Made by a program: the position numbers and the translations under genes | Shown here: positions 6,861 to 63,485 of the stretch, one piece after another | How positions within the stretch are numbered: position 1 is the first letter of the stretch | Layout of the letters: every line of letters starts with the position of its first letter | Source of the DNA: Escherichia phage vB_EcoM_G53 | Sequence record: MK327943.1 | Length of the DNA: 64,000 bases | Reading direction: 5' to 3' (one strand) | The notes under the pieces: generated by a model | What the model was told of the DNA's origin: nothing | Database searches by the model: none | Seen by the model: only the letters and a program-made list of their open reading frames with translations

Positions 6861-7385
6861 TCATTTTAGCAAAATAAAATCAACTTGTTCTGCCAATGAA
6901 CGTCTAAACATTAATTGACAACTTCCGAGGATGAAATCAGGTGCTTCATAGACCGCGATGTAGTATCCTTTAGCTTTCAAGAGTTCAACATCCACCTGGT
7001 CATCAAACCATGCATAAACCGCGTCAACACTTTCAAATCCAAAATAGAACCCTTGAGCCCAATCTTCACTCAATTCAAATGTGTGCTCAATTCTATAGTA
7101 TCTTAAGATATTTTGTTCAAGGAGTTTGTCTTCATTTACTGTAGGACGATTAGGGACATTATAGTTGTCGCCGTGATGGTAGAAGTTACCTGAGAGTATT
7201 CCATGTTTATCAAGGAACTCCCATGTTTCTTCAGAGTTGTCGGTGCCCGACCAACCGTATGGCGAGCGAGGTTCTTTATTCCAAGAGGTTTCCCAAATTC
7301 TGACGGCTTTACCGTCTTCGATAGCAATTCCTGGTAATGATTCACGTTGAGTACAAAAACTACGTTCTACACGGTAAACTAACAT
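6861..7385 (-). CDS. hypothetical protein
   Basis: 174-aa ORF; GAGGAG SD upstream of ATG at 7385. Confidence 0.45.
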   Translation of the reverse strand: MLVYRVERSFCTQRESLPGIAIEDGKAVRIWETSWNKEPRSPYGWSGTDNSEETWEFLDKHGILSGNFYHHGDNYNVPNRPTVNEDKLLEQNILRYYRIEHTFELSEDWAQGFYFGFESVDAVYAWFDDQVDVELLKAKGYYIAVYEAPDFILGSCQLMFRRSLAEQVDFILLK

Positions 7386-7411
7386 ATTATTCTCCTCTGG
7401 TTGATATGGTT

Positions 7412-7440
7412 ATAATATCAAAACCGGAGGAGAAGTAAAC
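7412..7440 (-). promoter_or_regulatory. early promoter with spacer/5'UTR inverted repeat
   Basis: minus strand GTTTAC, 17-nt spacer, TATTAT; arm ctcctccgg in the spacer is complementary to ccagaggag carrying the SD. Confidence 0.5.
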
Positions 7441-8962: not shown

Positions 8963-8992
8963 TTATACTCCAACCGTCCTTGGTTGTAAACT
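8963..8992 (-). promoter_or_regulatory. early promoter, member of repeated promoter module
   Basis: minus strand GTTTAC, 18-nt spacer (aaccaaggacggttggag), TATAAT. Confidence 0.45.
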
Positions 8993-12872: not shown

Positions 12873-13454
12873 CTAAAAATTCAACATTTTCAAATGAATG
12901 ATTTTGTATAATCGAGATAAAGGGTCGTATTCTAAGTCTTCAATTTCCACAATCTCAAATCTAGAGATACCTGAGACCATGTACTCTTGTTCAGATTCAA
13001 TCATATCTAGGACGTCAACACGCGTTTCTTCCATAACATGCTTAGGGTTCTTTCCGGCGAGTACAATGTTAACCATGTTTTGGTAGTAATCAAAAATGAA
13101 TGGAGCATTCCTGAGACTAAGAATAGTGTACGTCTGATATTCCCATCTCCCAGAGAATTGACGAGCTGTACTGAAATCAGTTGTGAACGATGTTACTCGT
13201 CCAGGAGACCAATGGCATCCAACAGAAAGAAGAGAAAGACGTTCTACTTCTTCTGGAGTTACACCGCGGTAGAGTTCTACTGGTACTGTAGAAGTCATAT
13301 GCTTACGAACAAGATGGTCTAATTCATAGTGGAAATCCGGGTCTTCCTTAGAATCGGTGCAAGCCCAGAGAATGTTTTGTTCTTGGCGGGTGAATTTGCT
13401 ATCAATAAGATTTGTTAGGTATTCACGTTCTTGAAGTTCAGATTGACATGTCAT
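12873..13454 (-). CDS. ADP-ribosyltransferase, ModA/ModB family
   Basis: 193-aa ORF; YRG...SFTTDFSTARQF...EQEYM motifs. Confidence 0.6.
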   Translation of the reverse strand: MTCQSELQEREYLTNLIDSKFTRQEQNILWACTDSKEDPDFHYELDHLVRKHMTSTVPVELYRGVTPEEVERLSLLSVGCHWSPGRVTSFTTDFSTARQFSGRWEYQTYTILSLRNAPFIFDYYQNMVNIVLAGKNPKHVMEETRVDVLDMIESEQEYMVSGISRFEIVEIEDLEYDPLSRLYKIIHLKMLNF

Positions 13455-13506
13455 GATAGACCTCCATTTAAAGATAAGCCTATCATAACATGAGAGGAGG
13501 GAATGT

Positions 13507-13674
13507 AAACTACTTTTTAAGCTTTCCTACTAAAGGTCCATCAGGGCCAGGTTGTTCTAACATGAATAACGATGCTTTAAAAAGCAATGTTAACCCTTTC
13601 ACCATTCGATACCATGTCTCAAAGTCTTTTTCCTTGATTTCTAGTAAGAATTTCTCTTTAAATTTCTCTTTCAT
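13507..13674 (-). CDS. small hypothetical protein (55 aa), not in ORF track
   Basis: ATG overlaps the upstream stop as ATGA (13671..13674); ORF MKEKFKEKFLLEIKEKDFETWYRMVKG... Confidence 0.35.
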
Positions 13675-18531: not shown

Positions 18532-18817
18532 CTGTGATTTCGGTTACGATATCTTTGTTATCGAAATTAGGGTCACAATACAAAACATAGTTGTACTGCA
18601 TGATACCGCCAGACTTAAGTTGTTCAACAACTTTATTAACCATATTAGGATGGTCTCGTTTAGTGATGTTCATGATATCAGAGAAGATTTGTTGTTCAAC
18701 ATCTTCTTGATTTGCAGTCATTGACCACTCACAGAGGTCTTTATCATAACCTGCCGTAACTGGAGCCGGTGCACATGATACTGCAAGTAAGATTGCTGCC
18801 AATGATAACTTTTTCAT
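18524..18817 (-). CDS. sp: Spackle periplasmic protein (superinfection exclusion, lysozyme gp5 inhibitor)
   Basis: 97-aa ORF with signal peptide; GYDKDLCEWSMTA...GGIMQYNYVLYCD matches T4 Sp as I recall it. Confidence 0.7.
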   Translation of the reverse strand: MKKLSLAAILLAVSCAPAPVTAGYDKDLCEWSMTANQEDVEQQIFSDIMNITKRDHPNMVNKVVEQLKSGGIMQYNYVLYCDPNFDNKDIVTEITGE

Positions 18818-18880
18818 TTTAACTCCTTAGTTGATTTGATAGGACTACTATACTATAGTCCATCTATAATGTAAACAAGT

Positions 18881-19129
18881 TTATTCTTTTTCGCGAATAA
18901 TAATTACTTGTTGAGGCTGCTGAGCTGATTTCTTTTCGGCAACGATAGACCAAATTAAAGTTCCAATCCAACCAACCATCGTCCAGTTAAAGAGTAAAGA
19001 TACAAAGAAGATTGCTGTTGTGCTTTTTGTGCCACGAATAAGTGCGATTACCCAAGGCAACATGTAAATGATGATTGAACCAATACCTGCGATTAAAACT
19101 GCTACTGAACTAGCTACGAATAATTCCAT
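18881..19129 (-). CDS. superinfection-immunity family membrane protein (Imm-like)
   Basis: 82-aa two-TM ORF with LPWVIALIRG and LLFNWTMVGWIGTLIW motifs typical of the Imm_superinfect family. Confidence 0.5.
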   Translation of the reverse strand: MELFVASSVAVLIAGIGSIIIYMLPWVIALIRGTKSTTAIFFVSLLFNWTMVGWIGTLIWSIVAEKKSAQQPQQVIIIREKE

Positions 19130-19559: not shown

Positions 19560-19619
19560 TTCAATTTCCTCTGTAGTTGATAGAAAGATAGTAACACAGT
19601 ATGTGGTGCTTGTAAACAG

Positions 19620-19833: not shown

Positions 19834-20046
19834 TTATCCTCTGAAATCAGCTTCAAAAACTTTCTCGTCATTAATAAATGCTTTAACTAATGCATTGTTC
19901 ACTTCAGCAAGTTGTACCGTAACCCACTCGATTTCTTCGCGATCACCTGATAACATGATATCTTTAGTGAACATCTCACCGCTTTTAAACCAACCGATAA
20001 AAGTAACTTTAGTTAATTTGCTCATATTTCCTCGCAAAATGCCCAT
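19834..20046 (-). CDS. small hypothetical protein
   Basis: 70-aa ORF. Confidence 0.4.
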   Translation of the reverse strand: MGILRGNMSKLTKVTFIGWFKSGEMFTKDIMLSGDREEIEWVTVQLAEVNNALVKAFINDEKVFEADFRG

Positions 20047-20339
20047 TCAGCGTGATAAACTGTAGCGCCTTTAGTATCATTCATTTGAACTACATCTACC
20101 GGAGAAATTACTCGATAGAGACGTGGTTCACCTCCATAAGAGCGTGCTGCTCGTCCTGCATAAATCTTTGCTAAACCGATATCTTCAGTAAAGAATACAC
20201 GATCCAAGTTTTTCTTACGTCCAGTTTCAGACAGAACTCCTGTTTCTTCAGGAGGACAAAGCATGTTTTCGATGTTAGCTGAACTACTTGAACCGTGATA
20301 AAAAATCTTAAATTCTGCTTTACAATCGATGGTTTTCAT
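20022..20339 (-). CDS. hypothetical protein
   Basis: 105-aa ORF downstream of an early promoter with a GGAG SD. Confidence 0.45.
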   Translation of the reverse strand: MKTIDCKAEFKIFYHGSSSSANIENMLCPPEETGVLSETGRKKNLDRVFFTEDIGLAKIYAGRAARSYGGEPRLYRVISPVDVVQMNDTKGATVYHAEWAFCEEI

Positions 20340-20365
20340 TTTGTTCTCCAGTAGTTGATAGGTCT

Positions 20366-20394
20366 ATAATAACACAACTACTGGAGAAGTAAAC
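20366..20394 (-). promoter_or_regulatory. early promoter with 12-bp perfect inverted repeat spanning spacer and SD
   Basis: minus strand GTTTAC, 17-nt spacer, TATTAT; ctccagtagttg (20376..20387 region) pairs with caactactggag containing the SD. Confidence 0.55.
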
Positions 20395-20769
20395 TTAAAA
20401 ATGTAATTTAGATATATCTGCGTTGATTTCGTTTTGGTTTGCGTCATATGCAATTAAACGAACCGCTTTAGATGGGTCATTCAATGCATAGAAATGATGG
20501 AACATTGCTCGAACGATATCACCATTTACGAGTTCTACCTGGATAGGAGAACCTTTTTCGAGTTGGAAATGTTCGTAAGCTTTGATGGTTCGTAGATAAT
20601 CAAGTTTTTGATTTCCAGCTCCAACTATTTGTACGATACGTTTGCCTGTGTTTTCCATACGAGATACAATAGTTTTAGGAGCAAGAATAACGTAGGTTGC
20701 CAGCGGAGAAACTACTTCAACAGTTGTGTTTTCGGTGATTGCAGTAAAAATTGCTTGAGACATATTCAT
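20395..20769 (-). CDS. hypothetical protein
   Basis: 124-aa ORF. Confidence 0.45.
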   Translation of the reverse strand: MNMSQAIFTAITENTTVEVVSPLATYVILAPKTIVSRMENTGKRIVQIVGAGNQKLDYLRTIKAYEHFQLEKGSPIQVELVNGDIVRAMFHHFYALNDPSKAVRLIAYDANQNEINADISKLHF

Positions 20770-40865: not shown

Positions 40866-41406
40866 ATAAAAAATCCAAACTAGGCGAATCGCTAACAACT
40901 TCCTTCTTTTCAGCCCCAGGAGCTTTATAAGCGGATTCTTCATAATGCGTCATTTTATCGTAGATGTCTTGAATAAATGTTTCATCTACCAACGCTACCA
41001 TATCATCGTCATGACTGTCGTAGACATTATGAACGAAGTAACTATATTTCTTTGCAACTTCCTTACGTTCTTTTTTGATACGTTGGACAAAAGCATTAAA
41101 ACAAGCTCGAGTTATGTATGCATGTGGGTTATTGTACTTAGTTTCGTCGAAATTATGAAGTCCCTTAATAGAGGCTTCAATCCCATCTGCAATCATCTCC
41201 TGCTTCCAAGACTGGGTATATCCTGAAAAGTTGAAACGTTTGGACAGGCCTTCGGCGATAAGCATAATTGCTAAACCGATGGTATCATTCTGACGAATAA
41301 TTTTGTTTGGGTCTTTATTATTTAAGAGCTCCTTTTTCCACTCGATTATAGCGGCGAGAAGCTCTTTATTATTCACATAGTTATTTTTAGGTTTTTGTTC
41401 AGTCAT
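40849..41406 (-). CDS. 55: late transcription sigma factor gp55
   Basis: 185 aa from the ATG at 41406 (MTEQKPK...); near-identical to T4 gp55 as I recall it over [39 protein letters not shown]. Confidence 0.9.
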
Positions 41407-41478
41407 AAGTACCTCTTGGCTCAATTCATAGGTCTATTATATCATAATATTTAGAGACCTATCTTAAAGCACGAGATA

Positions 41479-41748
41479 CTATCGGAGCAAACAATAAGCC
41501 TGAAACACTTTTTCCATTAAACGTTTGAACTCATGGATATCGATATAAAGCTCAGTAAGACCGGCATTATAAAGAAAATCTAAAAAGTTCTCATGTGTTT
41601 CGTTATAGTCGCCTTCGTTTAATTGAGATACATGAGTTTCCCAAAAACCAACACCTTTAACGAATGGAAAATACGTGACTTTCATGTATTCGTCAACATA
41701 AAATTCGCCCAGCTTTTCTTCAGTTATACTGATTCGAGTTAATTTCAT
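41479..41748 (-). CDS. small hypothetical protein
   Basis: 89-aa ORF. Confidence 0.4.
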   Translation of the reverse strand: MKLTRISITEEKLGEFYVDEYMKVTYFPFVKGVGFWETHVSQLNEGDYNETHENFLDFLYNAGLTELYIDIHEFKRLMEKVFQAYCLLR

Positions 41749-43559: not shown

Positions 43560-43738
43560 GGCTTAATTTCCTTCGCAATTGAACAGAAGATACCGCGGTC
43601 ACAAAGCATTTCACCAATTTCTGGATATTTGATTGAACGGTACCAAACATCCAGGTTTGAAACTTTGGTTATCTGTACTGCATTACCGTTGACAGAATAG
43701 TACTGGTCAACCTTAATTTCTTTATCTTCAATTGTCAT
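43556..43738 (-). CDS. small hypothetical protein (start placed at MTIEDKE)
   Basis: ORF 43556..43900 trimmed to the ATG with GAGGAA SD downstream of a GTTTAC/TAAGAT promoter. Confidence 0.35.
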   Translation of the reverse strand: MTIEDKEIKVDQYYSVNGNAVQITKVSNLDVWYRSIKYPEIGEMLCDRGIFCSIAKEIKP

Positions 43739-43871
43739 TTTATTTTCCTCTATAGTAGATGGTTTAATCTTAACACATTTATTGAGGATGTAAACTGTTT
43801 TATGAAAATATTTTTTGATTTGAGAGGGGCACAAGGAGATAGTGAAGTGAAGATTCCAATGGATTATATTA

Positions 43872-44513: not shown

Positions 44514-44768
44514 TTAGGCCTTTTTATCAAGAATACGTTCGATGCGACGAGTAATTGATTCACAACGTGCTTTAAACTCGGCAGGCGGAAGTCCCTTTTC
44601 AGGAGAAATCGTTCCAATGATGTAGAACATTACTAATGCCGGAATTGTAACCACAGCACCGATGGCCAACAAAATAACCATCACAATAAATCCGAGTGTT
44701 TGTGCTACTGCTAATCGAAATTTATACATTAGAAAAAGTTCCCGTACATTGATGCAACAAAAAGCCAT
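44514..44768 (-). CDS. small membrane protein
   Basis: 84-aa ORF with two hydrophobic segments. Confidence 0.4.
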   Translation of the reverse strand: MAFCCINVRELFLMYKFRLAVAQTLGFIVMVILLAIGAVVTIPALVMFYIIGTISPEKGLPPAEFKARCESITRRIERILDKKA

Positions 44769-44850
44769 TGAGAAGGATACTCAAGGCCCATTAGACGAAC
44801 CGCATCGTTTACTGCTTCTTGTAATGCGTAGAACACATATCCGTAAAAAT

Positions 44851-45324
44851 TCATTTAAGCGATTTCCTCAGTTGTTTTTTAAATGACGTTACCATTTTAG
44901 CTTTGGTATCGTCTTCATTATAACTAAAACCGTTTGAAAGCATTTCTGCAATCATTTCTTCTTTAGCTAATCTTGAGAACTCTTTAGTTTTGTCCGGAAC
45001 AAAATTAGGATGGATGTTATTAGCAGAATAATCTTGTTTCAAATAAGCAAGAAGAGCTTCAAGCCATTCGAGGTAGTCGACATCACGACCTTTAAGACCA
45101 GAACGGTTGAACTTATGCTTCATTTGACCTTCTGCTGCGTTGCACAGATTACAGAGTAACCCACGAACTCTACCTGCTTTTGGCCCGTTTAATTCGTGGT
45201 CGTGGTCAAGATGGTTACCTTGAACATCAGGGTCTAATTCACGGTGGCAAATAGGACACTTACCGTTCTGTGCATCATAAAATTTTTGTTTTTCTTCTTT
45301 GTATAATTTGCCAGATAATAACAT
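44851..45324 (-). CDS. 49: endonuclease VII (Holliday junction resolvase) gp49
   Basis: 157-aa ORF; zinc/HNH-like motifs CPICHRELD...NHLDHDHELNG...CNLCN; same length as T4 EndoVII. Confidence 0.85.
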   Translation of the reverse strand: MLLSGKLYKEEKQKFYDAQNGKCPICHRELDPDVQGNHLDHDHELNGPKAGRVRGLLCNLCNAAEGQMKHKFNRSGLKGRDVDYLEWLEALLAYLKQDYSANNIHPNFVPDKTKEFSRLAKEEMIAEMLSNGFSYNEDDTKAKMVTSFKKQLRKSLK

Positions 45325-45330
45325 AATAAA

Positions 45331-45361
45331 CCCTTACCATATATAGATAAGGGTATTTATA
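45331..45361 (-). promoter_or_regulatory. gene 49 control region: late promoter TATAAATA plus SD-sequestering hairpin
   Basis: TATAAATA at 45354..45361 (minus); mRNA hairpin ccctta-N11-taaggg whose 3' arm carries the SD-like AAGGG 7 nt before the ATG. Confidence 0.55.
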
Positions 45362-45363
45362 AT

Positions 45364-45543
45364 TTAGTAAACGTTATAAAAGTCTCGATGAAAACGTTTA
45401 TACTGTCGAATCATTCTTTTAGTAGGACGTGTTACCGAAATGATTGAAGTCCTCATGTTTGGATTGTTTGGAGCCCCAATCATAATAAATTTCCAGGATT
45501 TTTGGCCGTTTGTTCTTTCGCCATAAAATAGTTCAGTTTTCAT
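45364..45543 (-). CDS. small basic protein, RPTKRQ-motif family (59 aa), not in ORF track
   Basis: MKTELFYGERTNGQKSWKF...VTRPTKRMIRQYKRFHRDFYNVY; AAAGG SD. Confidence 0.4.
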   Translation of the reverse strand: MKTELFYGERTNGQKSWKFIMIGAPNNPNMRTSIISVTRPTKRMIRQYKRFHRDFYNVY

Positions 45544-45552
45544 AATAAACCT

Positions 45553-45966
45553 TTAACTTAAACGTCTTTCTAAATATTCAACGTATTCCGCTGCGGCTTG
45601 CATCAGATTACCTTCATAACCGTCATTATTTTCTTGGGCGGCTAATTTAGCTAAAGCATAAGAAATACGTTCACCTTCGAATTCGCCAAGTCCACCATCA
45701 CAAACTACTTGGTCAATTTCTTCGAGTTCATCTATTGAATGGGATTCCCAGAAGCACCAAAGAGAAGTATCACGGTCATAGATGCAAAGTTTCTCACCTG
45801 TGTTCAACATCACTTCAATAATGCCATGGTCGCCATAACCATCTTCGGTAGTAGTACCAATTACCTTGATGATCGTATCTTTCTTTAATTCAGGAAACTT
45901 GACTTGTAGTTCTTCATCTTCTTTAACAATCTTGAACCATTTACCGCGAGTTTCAGAAATATTCAT
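45553..45966 (-). CDS. hypothetical acidic protein (start placed at MNISETRGKW)
   Basis: ORF 45553..46104 trimmed to the ATG just after the stop of the upstream small ORF. Confidence 0.4.
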   Translation of the reverse strand: MNISETRGKWFKIVKEDEELQVKFPELKKDTIIKVIGTTTEDGYGDHGIIEVMLNTGEKLCIYDRDTSLWCFWESHSIDELEEIDQVVCDGGLGEFEGERISYALAKLAAQENNDGYEGNLMQAAAEYVEYLERRLS

Positions 45967-45967
45967 A

Positions 45968-46138
45968 TCAATATTCTCTATAAAAGTTACGATGAGAACG
46001 TTTAGCTTTGCGAAGCTGACGTTTAGTAGGACGAACTGTAAACGGTTGTCCAGAGAAAAAATTCGGATCGGTTTTAATAAGCAAATACCAATCATGCTTG
46101 CCATTTTTTAATAAACGGTACAATAATTTAACTTGCAT
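45968..46138 (-). CDS. small basic protein, RPTKRQ-motif family (56 aa)
   Basis: ORF-track start at 46165 is a TTG; ATG at 46138; C-terminal VRPTKRQLRKAKRSHRNFYREY. Confidence 0.4.
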   Translation of the reverse strand: MQVKLLYRLLKNGKHDWYLLIKTDPNFFSGQPFTVRPTKRQLRKAKRSHRNFYREY

Positions 46139-46266
46139 AATAATCTCTTCCCATCTCCATATCAATTAATTCATTTATTGAAGGTTCATCATAACACGTT
46201 TCTTCGTCGTTGTAAACTGTTTCGACGTCCGGCTCGACTGTCTCCCATCGAGCCGAATACCATGGC

Positions 46267-46623
46267 TTAACCCCGGAGTTTATTGAGCTCTTCATAATCA
46301 ATCCAGGATTCTAGCCCTGACGGCAGGTCACATTCAATGTTCCACAGAAGCTCTTCAATGGCTTGCAGGCGATTATATTCTTCAACGGTAATGGTAACCA
46401 TTGGTGCAACCGGTTCTGCCTTTTTAACCATCATGTCGTTCATCAGGACGTAAAGGTCATCACGAACGACAGTGTCGTTCCATCCCCATGATTTGGCTTC
46501 GTAAGCTAATGATGAAGGGAGCACATTTAAAACTTCAATAATAGTTGGAGCATCAGGACCAAGTTCATTGGCACAAACTTCGTATACATCTTGGAAATCT
46601 TTAAGATTTAATGAATATGTCAT
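46267..46623 (-). CDS. hypothetical protein
   Basis: 118-aa acidic ORF. Confidence 0.45.
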   Translation of the reverse strand: MTYSLNLKDFQDVYEVCANELGPDAPTIIEVLNVLPSSLAYEAKSWGWNDTVVRDDLYVLMNDMMVKKAEPVAPMVTITVEEYNRLQAIEELLWNIECDLPSGLESWIDYEELNKLRG

Positions 46624-46641
46624 TTAAAATTTTCTCGCAGG

Positions 46642-46938
46642 TTATTGTTCTACCCATGAACAAGAGACTTCAAAATCAGGACCACCGTATTCCCAGTGAT
46701 ATTCACCAACAGGAATCCAGTCACCGTGCTCGTTTTCTTCATAGTCCTCAGGCTCAAGGCCAACGAATCGCCATTGGACACCGATGATTCGATTACCCAT
46801 CATTACTCGAAATTCGCCCCATGGATTATCGATAGCATACTGAATATCGTTCTTGGCACGAGAGCACATTTCTTGATATAATAAAGCTTCTAATTCACCC
46901 TTGTCATAAGGACCAGGGAAAGTTAAATCAATACTCAT
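46642..46938 (-). CDS. hypothetical protein
   Basis: 98-aa Trp-rich acidic ORF. Confidence 0.45.
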   Translation of the reverse strand: MSIDLTFPGPYDKGELEALLYQEMCSRAKNDIQYAIDNPWGEFRVMMGNRIIGVQWRFVGLEPEDYEENEHGDWIPVGEYHWEYGGPDFEVSCSWVEQ

Positions 46939-47198
46939 TTAAAATATTCTCGTAGTTGGTCAAATCCACCAATGTGACTTCCGTCAGGAGCAAACACCTG
47001 AGGCATAGTCAATCCAACTTGTGATTCACGTCCAAGCTTAACCAGAAGCTCAGTAATTTTCTCATCATCGAACACACCTTTTTCCGGCATAACATTAATG
47101 AATTCGAATGGTTGTTTCTTAACAGTCAGCAATCGTTTCGCATTATCACAATAAATGCATTTATGAATAGTAGAGTCATACCCGTACACTTTAAACAT
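46935..47198 (-). CDS. nrdC: thioredoxin NrdC
   Basis: 87 aa from MFKVYGYDS; CIYCDNAKRL active site; near-identical to T4 NrdC as I recall it. Confidence 0.85.
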   Translation of the reverse strand: MFKVYGYDSTIHKCIYCDNAKRLLTVKKQPFEFINVMPEKGVFDDEKITELLVKLGRESQVGLTMPQVFAPDGSHIGGFDQLREYFK

Positions 47199-47604
47199 TA
47201 TTTTTCCTTTCATCGATTAAATATGCAATGCCAAATACAATACATGTAATAAAACCTGTGATACAGATAGAAACCAACAATACTGTACCAAAGAACCAAA
47301 TCAAGTTATCTTTGGTAGTTTGTTTGATATCCATCTCACGAATTTCTATAGCTATCGTATCACCTTTATTCAGAAGCGTATAAAACGATGGCGATACACG
47401 CCTGTCAAAAACTCGTCCTTGCTCATCTTTATAGACTGCAATAAATTCTAATTTAGAATATTTTCCTGTAGATTGGCCTGAGATTAATTCCACTACCTCC
47501 ACAGGAATTACTTTAGTTTCCATGTAAGTATTCTGGCTGTTCCAAATGAATGGAATAATAGCAAAAACTAAAGCTGCGATAAAACAACGAAGGCTATATC
47601 TCAT
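47191..47604 (-). CDS. membrane protein
   Basis: 137-aa ORF with N- and C-terminal hydrophobic helices. Confidence 0.45.
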   Translation of the reverse strand: MRYSLRCFIAALVFAIIPFIWNSQNTYMETKVIPVEVVELISGQSTGKYSKLEFIAVYKDEQGRVFDRRVSPSFYTLLNKGDTIAIEIREMDIKQTTKDNLIWFFGTVLLVSICITGFITCIVFGIAYLIDERKNNV

Positions 47605-50991: not shown

Positions 50992-51519
50992 TTATGCGTG
51001 AACCGTCTTTAAACGTTCTTCAAATTTCCGAAGAGTACTAATACGTTCTGCTTTCTGTTTTGTATAGTTTGCAATACGTTCTGAAGTGAGAGCGTATCGT
51101 TCGTTTACTGTTTCTTTCATGAAGTCAGGGATTTCACGAGAAGCTTTAATTTCATCAAACTTATCGAGTACTGCCTGGTCTTCAGCAATTAAATTTTCGT
51201 ACATCTCGATATCTTTCTTGATGAAGTCGATATCTTCCTGGGTTACTTTGGATAAACGAGATGCTTTATCCTTTTTGTACTGCTCGTTAGTTTCACGAGA
51301 CCAGAATAATGTACGTTTTTTGTTAGTGTTTTTGTAGACTTCCACAATTCCAACTGAATCGATGATAACAATCCAATTCCAGCGAGATTTGAAAATCTGA
51401 CCTCCGTCCACGGTAATCTCGTTACCATAAGCAACGTCATTAAAGAACTTACTTTGTGCTTCAGATTTAAATTTACCGTCGTTATAATTTACCAGGTTGA
51501 AAATATCTTTAGCGTTCAT
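50992..51519 (-). CDS. hypothetical protein
   Basis: 175-aa ORF downstream of a GTTTAC/TATTAT promoter. Confidence 0.45.
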   Translation of the reverse strand: MNAKDIFNLVNYNDGKFKSEAQSKFFNDVAYGNEITVDGGQIFKSRWNWIVIIDSVGIVEVYKNTNKKRTLFWSRETNEQYKKDKASRLSKVTQEDIDFIKKDIEMYENLIAEDQAVLDKFDEIKASREIPDFMKETVNERYALTSERIANYTKQKAERISTLRKFEERLKTVHA

Positions 51520-51577
51520 GTTTTACCTCCAGTAGTTGATAGGTCTATAATAACATAACCATAGACCTTGTAAACAA

Positions 51578-51865
51578 CTAAAAGAAACTTTTTTCGGTAT
51601 TTTTTCCACTGAACCAAACAGACTTCGGGATTTTTTGTAATTTTTCAGATTTAAGTTTCTCTTCCTGTTCTTTCTTATATACACCCTTGTCGTACTGGAG
51701 CATCTCTATGGCATTCTTTTGCAAACGATCTAAGGTAATTAAGGCTTTAGTTTTTCCTTTCAAGGAAGAGTCCTGGCGAACCTCCTCGCTATATTGCATT
51801 GTAGAACTAACCATACGATGAGCATAGAGTTCGACTGCGGCTTTAATTTTTTGCATAAAATCCAT
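51578..51865 (-). CDS. hypothetical protein
   Basis: 95-aa ORF; AAGAGGA SD. Confidence 0.45.
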   Translation of the reverse strand: MDFMQKIKAAVELYAHRMVSSTMQYSEEVRQDSSLKGKTKALITLDRLQKNAIEMLQYDKGVYKKEQEEKLKSEKLQKIPKSVWFSGKNTEKSFF

Positions 51866-53022: not shown

Positions 53023-53051
53023 ATAGTATCATATCCTAAAAGCATGTACAC
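53023..53051 (-). promoter_or_regulatory. early promoter
   Basis: minus strand GTGTAC, 17-nt spacer, TACTAT, then the AGACCTATC box. Confidence 0.45.
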
Positions 53052-53069
53052 TACTTTTTAAAAATATTT

Positions 53070-53100
53070 TAACCCCCTAAAGGGACCCGAAGGTCCCCAA
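53070..53100 (-). terminator. UUCG-tetraloop hairpin after the secreted-protein gene
   Basis: minus strand gggacc-ttcg-ggtccc followed by tttagggggtt. Confidence 0.4.
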
Positions 53101-53102
53101 AT

Positions 53103-53369
53103 TTACTTATCGCACTTAGCAACATAATTAGGCATATCACAGAATACAGAGCGAGTAACTACTCGGCCCTTTGACCATGCTTCAGTTGCTTGTCCGGCCG
53201 TGCTATTAATATAGCTTGATTTGATATTCTCAATACCCTGAGAATGTGATGCATTTACCGAACCGTTGGAAGGCCCAGAAGACTGGTTACCACCAGCTCC
53301 TGTACCTGTGGTAGCACCAACAGAGAATGCCATCATTACTGCGAATAAACCAATTACTAATTTTTTCAT
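53103..53369 (-). CDS. secreted Gly/Ser-rich protein
   Basis: 88-aa ORF with signal peptide MKKLVIGLFAVMMAFSVGA. Confidence 0.5.
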   Translation of the reverse strand: MKKLVIGLFAVMMAFSVGATTGTGAGGNQSSGPSNGSVNASHSQGIENIKSSYINSTAGQATEAWSKGRVVTRSVFCDMPNYVAKCDK

Positions 53370-53400
53370 ATTTACCTCAAGTTAAGGGTTATTTATCTAT

Positions 53401-54390
53401 TTATTTATAGTAAGAATTATGATTTTCGAGATAGACTTGCTCAAGGAAATCATCCCAGAAACTCATATCTACTTTTTGTTGCATACCGTTCTTAGCGGCT
53501 TGTTCTGATGCTTGTTCTACCTGGTCAACAATGTCTTCCAGGAATTCTTGTACAGTTTTAAACGTATGTTTACCAAGCTTAACATCGAGAATAAATGGAG
53601 CATCCTGAAGTGGGTAAACCAAGTCACCGGTTTTGTAAATTTCCAATAATTGAAGTCCACCACGACATGCATGGCTCAATGCTTTCCAGTCAATACCTTC
53701 GTTGGCTTCTGCCTTACGAGCACGTTCGCCATAGTTCTCTTCCAGTTTAACCAGGATGGCATTGAACTCTTTATTGGTTAACGTATCTTGGAATTTACGG
53801 TCTAACAGATTATAGAATGTTTGCTTACCTGTTTTCTCGTTTTCGGTTTCAACCCACGAAGCAAATTCACCTACAGGCAGAACATTCTTCATATGTGATA
53901 AACGAATTACTGCACCATTATCAAAGTATCGTCCCCATTCATTAGAACGTTTAAGGGCTTGACGAAGAACAGCCAGTCGAGAACCCTTGACACCGTATTT
54001 AGAAGCTTGCTTACGGACATACCCTAAATAAGATTTCATGTTAGTGGTATAGAAACGAGACCTGTTATCTTGAATATACTTCCATACATCAGGCAAATCA
54101 GATTTAACTACTAGACTTTGTGGAGTGTGAAGCATATCTAATGCGACGGTTTCACCATCCGCAGCTAGTTTAAAGAAATATTTGAGACTATACAACTCAT
54201 GGTCCACGTCGTCTTTTGTGTTCTTAGAAGCCGTGTTGTTAGTGTTCTTGCTCATGTGTTCTTTAACGTTACCGGTCAAGATATCGCGAGCATGAGGGAC
54301 ATAAATTTCTTTAAAATCGACGTCAGAATCAGGAGTAGACGTTCCATAAAGGTGGCTACCAAAGTAAGCCTTAACAATCGTTTTCATCAT
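53401..54390 (-). CDS. pol-beta-superfamily nucleotidyltransferase
   Basis: 329-aa ORF; N-terminal GSHLYGTSTPDSDVDF (GS-x9-DxD) nucleotidyltransferase signature. Confidence 0.5.
   Translation of the reverse strand: MMKTIVKAYFGSHLYGTSTPDSDVDFKEIYVPHARDILTGNVKEHMSKNTNNTASKNTKDDVDHELYSLKYFFKLAADGETVALDMLHTPQSLVVKSDLPDVWKYIQDNRSRFYTTNMKSYLGYVRKQASKYGVKGSRLAVLRQALKRSNEWGRYFDNGAVIRLSHMKNVLPVGEFASWVETENEKTGKQTFYNLLDRKFQDTLTNKEFNAILVKLEENYGERARKAEANEGIDWKALSHACRGGLQLLEIYKTGDLVYPLQDAPFILDVKLGKHTFKTVQEFLEDIVDQVEQASEQAAKNGMQQKVDMSFWDDFLEQVYLENHNSYYK
53402..53409 (-). promoter_or_regulatory. late promoter TATAAATA
   Basis: exact TATAAATA on the minus strand about 33 nt upstream of the ATG at 53369. Confidence 0.45.
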
Positions 54391-55581: not shown

Positions 55582-55688
55582 TTTACCATACTCGTTTCAA
55601 TAAGATTCACTATGCCGTTTACCATGTTATAGGTAAACATCGGATAATTGTATTGTACTACAACATAAGCGATAAGCAAAAGTTTCAT
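55578..55688 (-). CDS. small hydrophobic peptide (36 aa), not in ORF track
   Basis: MKLLLIAYVVVQYNYPMF...; GGAG SD 6 nt upstream; follows an early promoter. Confidence 0.3.
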   Translation of the reverse strand: MKLLLIAYVVVQYNYPMFTYNMVNGIVNLIETSMVK

Positions 55689-55711
55689 TTTGTTCTCCGT
55701 TTGTTTTGATA

Positions 55712-55741
55712 GGACTACTATAACATAGTCCTACCAAGATG
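55712..55741 (-). promoter_or_regulatory. early promoter
   Basis: minus strand GTTTAC, 18-nt spacer, TATAGT, then AGTCCTATCAAA box. Confidence 0.45.
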
Positions 55742-55745
55742 TAAA

Positions 55746-56003
55746 CTACCGATTGTGTTTTAAATGTTGATAAAGTTCTTCAACTTGTTTTGGGTCCAAA
55801 ACAATTAGGTCATTTTCTTGGCGAAGATAAATCCATCCATTATCCCCAGGACCATTTTTACAAAACATCACCACCATATCATCATCTTCAGCGCTTTCAG
55901 GTAAAAGTTCAAGTACACCGTCTTCAGATTTTCCAGTATAATCGTAAAGCATAATATCCTCACATAATCTCGTTAACATACATTTGCAATTCGGTGTGGG
56001 CAT
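55746..56003 (-). CDS. small hypothetical protein
   Basis: 85-aa ORF. Confidence 0.4.
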   Translation of the reverse strand: MPTPNCKCMLTRLCEDIMLYDYTGKSEDGVLELLPESAEDDDMVVMFCKNGPGDNGWIYLRQENDLIVLDPKQVEELYQHLKHNR

Positions 56004-56139
56004 CGGCCATCTTTTTCATAGCTCTGTTAATGTCGATGTCTCCATCTTCGCAACCATGAGCATTTTCCCAATCAGATACCGCATTAGCGTACTCTTCAAT
56101 CAAAAACATTAACTTAGAAATTTTTTCTTTACGTGACAT
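55960..56139 (-). CDS. small hypothetical protein (start placed at MSRKEK)
   Basis: ATG at 56139 with GAGGAG SD downstream of a GTTTAC/TATAGT promoter. Confidence 0.4.
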   Translation of the reverse strand: MSRKEKISKLMFLIEEYANAVSDWENAHGCEDGDIDINRAMKKMADAHTELQMYVNEIM

Positions 56140-56240
56140 AACGTTCTCCTCTAGTAAGTAAGGTTTACTATAACACAACCTGAGGAGAAGTAAACTGATA
56201 GATGCCAAAAAGCCCCAACCATAAGGAAGGGGCTAGTAAA

Positions 56241-56543
56241 TTAGATAGATGTAGGCTCTAATTTTATTTTCATGAACTCGGCAAATTGTCTGGCAGTTTT
56301 TATGCCTTGTTCATGACATTCAAATGCATCATCACAGGGACTATTTTTGTAATGCTTTGCCATATACTTATAGAATTTTTCAGAATTCTCGACATTTTGA
56401 ATTTCAAACAAAGTATATACGTTTTTAATCCCTGATTCCATAAAGTTATCAAAATATGGGTCGATATGTGCAGTACCAACGATAGGAGTTGTTGCTGCAA
56501 AAAACCCCAGCATCGCTATGACAGCTATCGCTCTTAAGGCCAT
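56241..56543 (-). CDS. secreted/periplasmic protein
   Basis: 100-aa ORF with N-terminal signal-like hydrophobic segment. Confidence 0.45.
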   Translation of the reverse strand: MALRAIAVIAMLGFFAATTPIVGTAHIDPYFDNFMESGIKNVYTLFEIQNVENSEKFYKYMAKHYKNSPCDDAFECHEQGIKTARQFAEFMKIKLEPTSI

Positions 56544-59332: not shown

Positions 59333-59791
59333 CTAGATTTTAATCACTGCTTTAGAAGCTTTTCCTGGTAGTCGTTTACTGTTAATAATAGCCATTCTAC
59401 ATCGAAGAGTCTTCATTTTGAATGCCGGATTTTCGCGACAAACTGTAAGTCCTAACCAAAGATTTCCGTCAGTTATTTCTAAACGGCCTGGACGATACTC
59501 GACACCTTCGACAAAATCTTCATCAACATCTGGACGTGCCGGCATTGATAAAAATTCTGCAACTTCTTTAACGTGATTTTTTACTTTATGAAATAATTCA
59601 AAAACGTAATTCTCATCTATTTCTCTCTGGATGGCACGATCTAAGAGATGTTGAGAATACTTGATATGAAAGCCTGGTAGTCCAAGAGACTTTGCAGCAT
59701 CTTTTATACCGGCATTTATTTTGCGGAACTCCGTTTCAAAGATTCGACGGAGTTTATTACGGCGGATAAAAACTTCCGAATTGATAGTCAT
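59333..59791 (-). CDS. regB: RegB endoribonuclease
   Basis: 152 aa from the ATG at 59791 (MTINSEVFIRRNKLRR...); highly similar to T4 RegB as I recall it. Confidence 0.85.
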   Translation of the reverse strand: MTINSEVFIRRNKLRRIFETEFRKINAGIKDAAKSLGLPGFHIKYSQHLLDRAIQREIDENYVFELFHKVKNHVKEVAEFLSMPARPDVDEDFVEGVEYRPGRLEITDGNLWLGLTVCRENPAFKMKTLRCRMAIINSKRLPGKASKAVIKI

Positions 59792-59819
59792 TTTGATTTC
59801 TCCTCTAGTTGACAAGTCT

Positions 59820-59849
59820 ATAGTAACACAACTAGAGGAGAAGTAAACT
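59820..59849 (-). promoter_or_regulatory. early promoter with 12-bp perfect inverted repeat spanning spacer and regB SD
   Basis: minus strand GTTTAC, 18-nt spacer, TACTAT; ctcctctagttg in the spacer pairs with caactagaggag carrying the SD. Confidence 0.55.
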
Positions 59850-60147
59850 ACTCTTTGAAAGGAATTAACTTTTTAACTGCTTTAGATACTTCGTCACGAA
59901 CCTGATGGAAGTTCTTGAGCTGTTCAAGGCGTTGTTCGTAATACGCAATCTCATCTTCTTCAAGACAATCGTCAGCGTCTTCTTTCAGATATGCCTTGTA
60001 CTCATTAAAGAGGGCCCATAGGCGGTTCTCAAAGTCATCAAGGCTTTGAATTTTCTTGTGCTTCGGAACAAGGCCAAAAGGATTGCTTTCAGTTATGCGT
60101 CTAGATGCTTCATAATGAGTTCCAAAGCCTGATAGGATTTGAGCCAT
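59848..60147 (-). CDS. hypothetical protein
   Basis: 99-aa ORF. Confidence 0.45.
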
Positions 60148-62682: not shown

Positions 62683-62746
62683 TTTTTGTTTCCTTGTTTG
62701 TTTTGATAGAGTAATTATACCATATTAATACTTAAGCGTAAACAAT

Positions 62747-63007
62747 TTAAGCTTTACCGCCAGAAATAATTCCGAAGTTGTTAAAATCGTATCCAATATC
62801 GTCAACATCTACTTTAGGGCTTGCTACAACATAAGCAATTTCACTACGTTTTGCATAGGTGTTGATTTCTTTACCATCGCCACCTAAGAAAGAATACCCA
62901 TTACGTTTTAATGAGCCAAAGTCTTCCGCATCACCAATGAAAGCTTTAACTTTAAATTTGGGGTCTTTGGCATCTGCTTCAATGATAAATTCTTGATACA
63001 TTTTCAT
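62747..63007 (-). CDS. internal protein-like product from the internal start inside the denV frame
   Basis: ATG at 63007 preceded by TAAGGAAAAA; [14 protein letters not shown] leader. Confidence 0.45.
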
Positions 63008-63427
63008 TTTTTCCTTAGTAAATTGATTACCATAGTATTTGTACCAAGTCGGACGTTGAGCAATTTTTTCATCTAAGCGTGCTTGACTTATCGCAATGGA
63101 CGCTTCGGACGGGACGTAATTATTACGAAATTCGGCAGGAATGTCGGAAATATCCTGGACAGTCGTGTCCTTGATTTTGAAACCGCGTTTCAAGCATTCA
63201 GCGATTAGCTCGATTTGTCGTAAACGTAAAAATTCGAGTTTGTCGTAAAAGAATGTTACGTGACCTGTGCCTAAGATAAATGTTGGAGAGATTTTAAAAT
63301 CCTTTACACGTTTACCGTTTTGAACATGTTTACGGACTGCACCAAATACGCGTGGTAATTCACGATACTCAGCCATAAGATGTTGGTCGGACAGTTCAGA
63401 AACAAGTGTTAAATTGATACGAGTCAT
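62747..63427 (-). CDS. denV: DenV endonuclease V (pyrimidine-dimer glycosylase) reading in-frame into an IP-like C-terminal module
   Basis: from the ATG at 63427: [34 protein letters not shown] matches T4 DenV as I recall it; no stop before [10 protein letters not shown] at 63007. Confidence 0.75.
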
Positions 63428-63455
63428 AATTTCCTCCAAGTAGTTGATGAATGTA

Positions 63456-63485
63456 TAGTATCAAAACCCTTGGAGGAAGTAAACA
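63456..63485 (-). promoter_or_regulatory. early promoter with inverted repeat spanning spacer and denV SD
   Basis: minus strand GTTTAC, 18-nt spacer, TACTAT; cctccaag pairs with cttggagg carrying the SD; coordinates approximate. Confidence 0.45.

Follow-up and report, generated by a model that had tools for sequence, protein, structure and literature searches.

Many tandem promoters serve the early regions of T-even phages, and the polycistronic RNAs that they produce overlap, so that each gene lies on several transcripts. Stem-loops ahead of two such genes of T4, regB and denV, were reportedly remarked on by Valerie et al. in 1986. In IS10, transcripts that enter from outside are said to fold back on the transposase TIR while RNA from the resident promoter is translatable, an observation credited to work by Davis, Simons, and Kleckner in 1985. 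The IS10 fold-back is cited as an instance of sequestered translation signals (PMC13181058). In T4 itself, the Shine-Dalgarno sequence (SD) or AUG of e, soc, 49, and I-TevI is hidden on long transcripts and free on transcripts from internal late promoters, and this masking logic has been proven, with late promoters, for e and I-TevI (Uzan & Miller 2010, PMC3014915).

Early SDs are cleaved by the RegB nuclease at GGAG(R)A(Y)A(R)AA unless secondary structure blocks it; T4 modB RNA is structured in vitro (RegB literature), and RegB may cut nascent RNA ahead of structure formation (Durand 2006). PeSLs are repeated early-promoter/stem-loop/SD cassettes that shuffle the ORFs of T4-like phages, and their stem-loops, drawn apart from the SD, have been interpreted as sites of termination or of recombination (Arbiol 2010, Comeau 2014). 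The RB49 and phi1 PeSLs carry a G-run and a C-run between or over the promoter boxes, those of T4 and PST lie just upstream of the promoter, and the RB49 stem-loops lowered downstream lacZ in a terminator-like manner (PeSL literature). Neither SD pairing nor a translational role nor RB69 appears in the PeSL papers of Arbiol 2010 and Comeau 2014.

Here we compare with these systems a 64,000-nucleotide stretch of Escherichia phage vB_EcoM_G53 (the window), which starts near rIIA. Over a 6-kb piece it is 98 to 99% identical to RB69 and related phages (Mosigvirus, Tevenvirinae), and on this identity the window is assigned to an RB69-like Mosigvirus. Almost all genes lie on the minus strand, and coordinates are therefore to be read as the reverse complement. 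Scanning that strand for TT[TG]AC-N16-18-TAnnnT followed by an SD and an ATG yielded ~20 to 26 cassettes. All of the masked sites fit GTTTAC-N17/18-TAnnnT (8 exact matches, 0.9 expected), and the RB69 orthologues of all masked-gene promoters are present among the HMM-based early-promoter predictions of Nolan et al. 2006 (PMC1524935, supplementary file 3), which are independent of the present scan. Both results support the assignment of these sites to T4-type early promoters, made in a preliminary description of the window.

Upstream of the homologue of RB69ORF040c, the minus strand reads TAA-GTTTAC-TTCTCCAGTAGTTGTGT-TATTAT-AGACCTAT-CAACTACTGGAGAA-CAAA-ATG. The parts of this cassette (20340..20394) and its neighbors are as follows.

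20395..20397, minus strand: stop codon TAA of the upstream ORF, abutting the -35
20389..20394, minus strand: -35 hexamer GTTTAC, early promoter of the RB69ORF040c homologue (RB69 orthologue Pe:20537 in Nolan 2006)
20375..20388, minus strand: 5' arm (anti-SD) TTCTCCAGTAGTTG, within the 17-nt promoter spacer
20366..20371, minus strand: -10 hexamer TATTAT, in the hairpin loop; predicted start at ~20359
20344..20357, minus strand: 3' arm CAACTACTGGAGAA, containing the SD GGAG at 20346..20349
20022..20339, minus strand: downstream gene, 105 aa, RB69ORF040c homologue; ATG at 20337..20339

The first 14 bases of the spacer, TTCTCCAGTAGTTG, form 14 perfect Watson-Crick pairs with the leader segment CAACTACTGGAGAA, which ends in the SD GGAGAA. 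With the start as predicted, this 5' arm occurs in read-through RNA from upstream only.

The preliminary description had listed six early promoters whose spacer carries an arm complementary to the downstream SD. Besides the cassette above, the following were found.

59789..59848, minus strand: regB cassette; -35 at 59843..59848, arm TTCTCCTCTAGTTG at 59829..59842, -10 at 59820..59825, arm CAACTAGAGGAGAA at 59798..59811, ATG at 59789..59791; arms TTCTCCTCTAGTTG/CAACTAGAGGAGAA pair over 14 bp, perfectly
63425..63484, minus strand: denV cassette; arm TTCCTCCAAG (63469..63478) with CTTGGAGGAA (63431..63440), 10 bp plus an extension
7383..7440, minus strand: motB.2 cassette; arm TTCTCCTCCGGTT (7422..7434) with AACCAGAGGAGAA (7390..7402), 8 + 4 bp with a single C.A mismatch (13 bp and perfect in the RB69 counterpart)
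56137..56195, minus strand: mobD.2a cassette, weak; 8-bp arm TTCTCCTC (56182..56189) with GAGGAGAA (56144..56151)
13450..13510, minus strand: modB cassette, variant geometry; -10 and discriminator (13477..13489) paired to 13450..13462, which covers the AUG and the 3' portion of the SD
43736..43795, minus strand: cassette of a 60-aa ORF, weak; TCCTCAATA with TATAGAGGA, 5 + 3 bp; SD unpaired probability 0.01 in the long RNA
51517..51595, minus strand: nrdC.8 cassette (51575), nested variant; inner hairpin AGGTCTAT/ATAGACCT across the -10

Five of the six listed promoters do pair a spacer arm with the SD (20394, 59848, 63484, 7440, and, weakly, 56195). The sixth, modB at 13510 (listed as 13455..13500), does not: its spacer-SD pairing is limited to CCTCC/GGAGG, and the true helix, of 13 bp, joins the -10 and discriminator to the AUG together with the 3' portion of the SD. 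Even with this other geometry, modB keeps its 5' arm ahead of the start site, and the logic still applies. Arm lengths run from 8 to 14 bp, so that of the 8 to 12 bp given earlier only the lower bound stands. The cassettes at 43795 and 51575 add TIR masking beyond the six sites; at nrdC.8 the SD is masked by a G.U-rich outer stem whose arm comes from the end of the upstream ORF, upstream of the -35.

A canonical terminator (AGCCCC-loop-GGGGCTTTTT; 56200..56243, minus strand) lies ~10 nt upstream of the mobD.2a -35 and was overlooked by our simple terminator scan because of its 12-nt loop. Little read-through is therefore expected at mobD.2a, which retains its arm behind the terminator. Two further observations concern gene content. 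The denV ORF (62745..63427, minus strand) runs 226 aa; it differs from RB69 by two single-base changes within A-runs that throw a few codons out of frame, with the result that DenV, lacking its final 4 residues, is fused in frame to the RB69ORF125c homologue. The fusion may be real or a homopolymer sequencing error. At 44533..44850 (RB69 44666..47257), nrdG and nrdD are missing, with ~316 bp in their place, and tblastn with nrdG and nrdD found no match anywhere in the window.

Early promoters of the window mostly lack an SD arm (~12 of 20). The class that carries one amounts to ~20% of early promoters, with 4 strict and 2 to 3 borderline cases among the 20 of the window; the T4 figure is 4 of 20. 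The masked cistrons of the window are motB.2, modB, the RB69ORF040c homologue, the 60-aa ORF, nrdC.8, mobD.2a, regB, and denV, and no clear property was found that separates them from the other genes.

To evaluate the pairing at the RNA level, read-through RNAs of 86 to 88 nt were folded, and the MFE and z-score were obtained for each site: -22.1 kcal/mol and -4.6 at 20394, -23.2 kcal/mol and -3.3 at 59848 (regB), -19.8 kcal/mol and -2.9 at 63484 (denV), -19.8 kcal/mol and -3.5 at 7440 (motB.2), -24.9 kcal/mol and -4.1 at 13510 (modB), and -16.7 kcal/mol and -0.8, which is not significant, at 56195 (mobD.2a). RNAs beginning at the predicted start were unstructured (0 to -2.5 kcal/mol). The predicted probability that the SD is unpaired was 0.00 in the long RNA versus 0.4 to 0.7 in the short RNA, and in a 365-nt context the arms were predicted to pair with probabilities of ~1.0. 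These predicted folds support the proposal that the SD is sequestered in read-through RNA and open in the short RNA.

Duplexes between a spacer and its own leader had energies of -15 to -23 kcal/mol and ranked 1, 1, 1, 2, and 6 among 26 leaders (own versus permuted leaders, p ~0.001). Masked SDs were found at 8 of 17 promoter-adjacent genes versus 8 of 54 genes without an early promoter. The promoter matches, the permutation result, and the fold z-scores together rule out a chance origin of the pairing: the observed complementarity of arm and SD is confirmed, and the feature is clearly beyond chance. We also considered and rejected the reading of these hairpins as intrinsic terminators, since the 3' arm is followed by CAAAATG, ATCAAAATG, or the like, without a U-run, and the sites are absent from the list of terminator-like elements. 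A search of the whole window against Rfam at the gathering score gave 0 matches.

The cassettes are compact. The intercistronic gap of ~55 to 60 nt is fully taken up by the -35, the spacer, the -10, a ~20-nt leader, and the ATG; upstream of the start, the spacer is thus the sole stretch that neither codes nor serves as a fixed signal, and it lies just past the reach of a ribosome terminating upstream. At 20394, 59848, 63484, 13510, and 7440, the upstream stop overlaps the -35 or lies 0 to 4 nt away (TAGTTTAC, TAAGTTTAC), and the arm therefore falls outside translated RNA. The predicted start lies 2 to 13 nt ahead of the 3' arm at every site, the entire 5' arm being upstream of it and the entire 3' arm in the leader, in agreement with the earlier statement that a transcript begun at the promoter lacks the 5' arm.

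The adjacent stop at these five sites could also point to translational coupling, in which a ribosome terminating there melts the 5' arm and opens the downstream SD. The arm begins 6 to 10 nt past the stop, and a ribosome leaves ~7 to 9 nt unwound 3' of a stop in the A site. By this geometry, no more than the outer 0 to 3 pairs of a 10- to 14-bp stem would be opened on termination, with the CUCC::GGAG core 9 to 13 nt beyond the stop, and coupling is therefore unlikely. Moreover, unmasked promoters show an equal stop-to-promoter distance, and the arm at 56195 is 45 nt and a terminator away from its upstream stop.

A different primary role is suggested by the SDs themselves. RegB targets are of the early-SD type and their cleavage is blocked by structure; GGAGAACAAAA, in the 3' arm at 20394, fits the RegB consensus GGAGRAYARAA exactly, the window encodes regB and masks its SD, and RegB acts in vivo on the SDs of T4 regB, motB.2, and modB (literature). 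The helix might thus serve mainly to guard the intercistronic GGAG of long delayed-early or middle polycistronic RNAs and so preserve the downstream cistrons, with the loss of translation of the masked cistron as a side effect. Against this role, the T4 denV GGAG is a poor substrate by sequence and is masked nonetheless, the arms of Winklervirus and of lineage L036 mask GAGGA without a GGAG, and GGAGAA also occurs in many unmasked early SDs. We consider RegB shielding a doubtful candidate for the primary function and give it a low probability.

The same design is present in T4, at the orthologues regB, motB.2, nrdC.8, denV, and modB. In T4 regB, the spacer TTTTCCTCTTGACTG pairs with the leader CAGTTAAGAGGAGAA through 13 Watson-Crick and 2 G.U pairs; in T4 denV, ATCTCCTGTAG pairs with CTACAGGAGA. 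The T4 modB mask is of the -10::AUG type, as in the window, whereas T4 nrdC.8 has a spacer::SD arm, unlike the nested form of the window. In total, the SD is masked in 7 of 21 T4 cassettes. That T4 already has this early-promoter design was missed in the preliminary description.

To follow the arms over greater distances, regB loci were gathered by protein homology alone from viral contigs, metagenomes, and a phage collection (11 from IMG/VR and 19 from metagenome scans). A spacer::SD helix is found at regB in seven lineages (Mosigvirus, Tequatrovirus, L013-15, Winklervirus, Kanagawavirus, L035, and L036), and its distal part differs in each: CTAGTTG/CAACTAG, CTTGACTG/CAGTTAAG, TGTAAG/CTTACA, ATTTG/CAAAT, TTTTAGT/ACTAAAA, TGTAG/CTACA, and TCTCTG/CAGAGA. 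Two lineages, Jiaodavirus and L040, have nested forms, and Gaprivervirus has the -10::SD/AUG form. In L019 and L034 (Klebsiella-phage), a covarying hairpin spans the -10 only and leaves the SD free. No promoter was found at the Krischvirus regB locus, and Aeromonas phages have a terminator and a promoter without an arm at regB.

When 13 distinct SD-type cassettes were compared, the own leader was the best partner in 11 (-20.7 versus -12.3 kcal/mol); the set was partly picked for strong pairing, so that it demonstrates diversity of the arms with pairing kept rather than an unbiased P value. RNAalifold returned no structure for a MAFFT alignment of eight regB leaders because arms of unequal length were misregistered. 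Judged from these comparisons, arm pairing is kept by covariation in T4 and the seven regB lineages.

The stems are mostly perfect Watson-Crick palindromes (226 of 239 positions), and selection at the RNA level is therefore not cleanly separable from selection at the DNA level; the counts of G.U versus A.C in stems, 7 versus 2, are few and come from scoring that favored G.U. T4 is a classic system for templated mutation at quasi-palindromes, and the stems might be by-products of that process, or of cruciform-related DNA effects at promoters, with no function in RNA. The near-perfect palindromes are in keeping with such an origin, as are hairpins around the -10 that do not touch the SD (class II, below). 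Against it, pairing persists at the same genes across genera with different sequences, the sense strand accommodates G.U pairs (T4 regB, motB.2, and nrdC.8; modB of the window), and the predicted start falls between the arms at every site. Given the conservation across genera, a palindrome without function is therefore highly unlikely.

The cassettes have much in common with PeSLs. They combine a sigma-70-type early promoter, a stem of 8 to 14 bp with the -10 in its loop, and an SD and start at the 3' end, and they are repeated beside variable ORFs or indels and recombine; no T-tail follows the 3' arm, and none is terminator-like. Except for this terminator signature, they belong to the published PeSL class. 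Natural recombinants were observed in the ORF041c/ORF040c cassettes of Escherichia phage vB_VIPECOMC06 (L046), LF82-5 (L044), and VR5 (L045), all three with the gene 41 terminator directly upstream, and where further Mosigvirus and Dhakavirus genomes match the focal region, the match starts inside the cassette or at its edge. The ORFs just upstream of the regB and nrdC.10 cassettes (59858..60142 and 53032..53403) are unrelated in sequence to RB69, with the replacement breakpoints ~10 to 20 nt or less from the -35 boxes. These observations point to PeSL-type shuffling of cassettes with internal joints, which went unrecognized in the preliminary description.

One could therefore regard the cassettes simply as mobile modules whose short homologies shuffle ORFs at the DNA level and whose stem-loop attenuates or terminates transcription, the involvement of the SD being incidental. 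They form a repeat family (68% mean column identity), and a 321-nt query found 703 places in 287 records. Relative to RB69, replacement breakpoints fall at the edge of the regB cassette (59858) and at the nrdC.10 cassette (53032). vB_VIPECOMC06 lacks ORF041c, with the tandem cassettes 20828 and 20394 joined at the SD; LF82-5 is joined at the -10; VR5 has a chimeric cassette with mismatched arms; and an L035 cassette, at regB, hardly differs from that of T4 denV. The reduction of lacZ by RB49 stem-loops also fits this reading. Yet no hairpin has a U-tail or a terminator-like call, homologous recombination requires direct rather than inverted repeats, and the 3' partner is mostly the SD, which a DNA-level role does not predict. 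Recombination within the loop, as in VR5 and LF82-5, breaks the complementarity of the arms, and covarying pairing persists in many lineages all the same, so that selection on pairing is needed. We conclude that the recombination role of PeSLs is real and compatible with SD masking, that it gives no account of the inverted complementarity, and that as an explanation of the cassettes by itself it is improbable.

The reading that we prefer is SD masking. We propose that composite promoter/leader cassettes of T-even phages have come to use the 17- to 18-nt promoter spacer as an anti-Shine-Dalgarno arm. RNA entering from an upstream promoter would hold both arms and form an 8- to 15-bp hairpin whose loop contains the -10 box; the hairpin would bury the SD of the next gene (and, in the modB type, the AUG as well), giving poor initiation on read-through RNA, and would shield the GGAG from the structure-sensitive RegB nuclease. 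RNA from the cassette's own promoter, beginning 2 to 13 nt before the 3' arm, would lack the 5' arm and leave the SD open. Consequently regB, modB, motB.2, denV, nrdC.8, and ORF040c would be translated essentially only from their own early transcripts, while early promoters fire. On balance we lean toward this model, in which read-through RNA would hide the TIR and the RegB site, own-promoter RNA would expose both, and translation would occur only while the early promoter fires. The formation of the hairpin in vivo on a translated polycistronic RNA, the lowered initiation, and the physiological purpose are steps that we infer. The comparative data make the mechanism put forward in the preliminary description plausible and the best supported of the readings.

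A broader form of the proposal is possible but tentative: across the Tevenvirinae, about one-fifth of early promoters might encode a spacer anti-SD, with the cistron translated only from its own promoter and read-through RNAs silent and immune to RegB at that point. Another candidate rule, that a mask occurs only where no terminator precedes, was rejected: it has anecdotal support (LF82-5, VR5, pEC-M719, and the Aeromonas phages), and across the window and T4, masking showed no significant correlation with the absence of an upstream terminator.

A second group of hairpins, class II, pairs the 3' part of the spacer with positions +1 to +10 of the leader, with the -10 in the loop and the SD free (TAGGACTAT/ATAGTCCTA; in T4, GACAAGACTAT/ATAGTCTTGTC). 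They are found on another 10 to 20% of early promoters, as follows.

18811..18882, minus strand: class II hairpin, window (18876)
55681..55752, minus strand: class II hairpin, window (55746)
51513..51581, minus strand: class II hairpin, window (inner hairpin)
T4 (L003/L004): class II hairpins at the dmd, mobD.2, and ipI promoters

Class II hairpins are left unexplained by SD masking. They and the hairpins of L019 and L034 leave the SD free, and therefore what is conserved may be the hairpin across the -10, and not the masking of the SD.

Several related elements were noted in passing. The motif (C)TATCAAC(T)AC is conserved at ~+1 to +10 of early transcripts in the leaders of many cassettes, with or without a complementary spacer (for example, 20350..20362, 51530..51545, and 19575..19590 in the window; 27013, 53885, 55320, 65355, 70623, and 73514 in T4). 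The promoters at 8991, 48914, and 49934 (-35 positions, minus strand) have a common spacer, AACCAAGGAYGGTTGGAG, an AACC/GGTT hairpin, and the -10 TATAAT, and on these shared sequences they form a separate cassette subfamily. Upstream of gene 55 (~41406..41490, minus strand), a nested structure is predicted to mask the SD of gp55, the late sigma factor. Within this structure lie a middle promoter with a MotA box (TGCTT) and, around the -10 of that promoter, an inner hairpin, AGGTCT/AGACCT; the predicted arrangement resembles that of the early cassettes, with a middle promoter in place of the early one.

If SD masking operates as proposed, the cassettes would provide a cis-encoded, immediate-early-only window of translation. 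A cis-element readable only on the RNA of its own promoter would insulate gene dosage from upstream promoters and tie translation to the 2 to 3 min during which early promoters live. It would also interact with RegB, with regB itself as the best-conserved example of a masked gene. Masking would also explain the RegB resistance of some early GGAG sites and the halt in synthesis from masked genes despite continued transcription. It would add a functional constraint to PeSL shuffling, in that recombination within a cassette breaks arm pairing, as in VR5 and LF82-5. The design packs promoter, mask, SD, and start into ~55 nt, might be of use in synthetic operons, and, being present in T4, is directly testable there.

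Compared with the described systems, the cassettes share with PeSLs an early promoter, stem-loop, SD, and ATG in a repeated module with joints between copies, and they differ from them in that the 3' arm is the SD itself and the terminator signature is absent. As in the RegB/S1 targets of T4, the masked SDs are early SDs of the GGAG(A)A type; the RegB literature, in contrast, treats structured GGAGs as uninformative resistant sites, with no tie to a promoter spacer. The analogy to T4 gene 49 and e drawn in the preliminary description is correct, and reviews list late-promoter cases only: no early-promoter masks are found in Uzan & Miller 2010 (PMC3014915), Hinton 2010, or Nolan 2006 (PMC1524935), though older T4 literature may mention them. 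Like e, soc, 49, and I-TevI, the cassettes place the SD or AUG in a (here predicted) helix on the long RNA, and the RNA of the internal promoter lacks the 5' strand. Those genes have a late gp55 promoter, TATAAATA, and late-only translation, whereas the cassettes, in which this motif was not found, have a sigma-70 early promoter and predicted early-only translation; moreover, unlike in the late masks, the 5' strand here is the -35/-10 spacer itself. With the fold-back protection of IS10 and IS50 and the RBS occlusion of IS200, the cassettes share a sequence upstream of a resident sigma-70 start that pairs with the TIR. IS10 thereby avoids accidental activation of a single transposase gene, whereas here many phage early genes are concerned (regB, denV, modB, motB.2, and others, rather than a transposable element), and read-through is the normal state. 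Among systems with a sigma-70 promoter, the fold-back protection of IS10 is the closest analogue of these cassettes.
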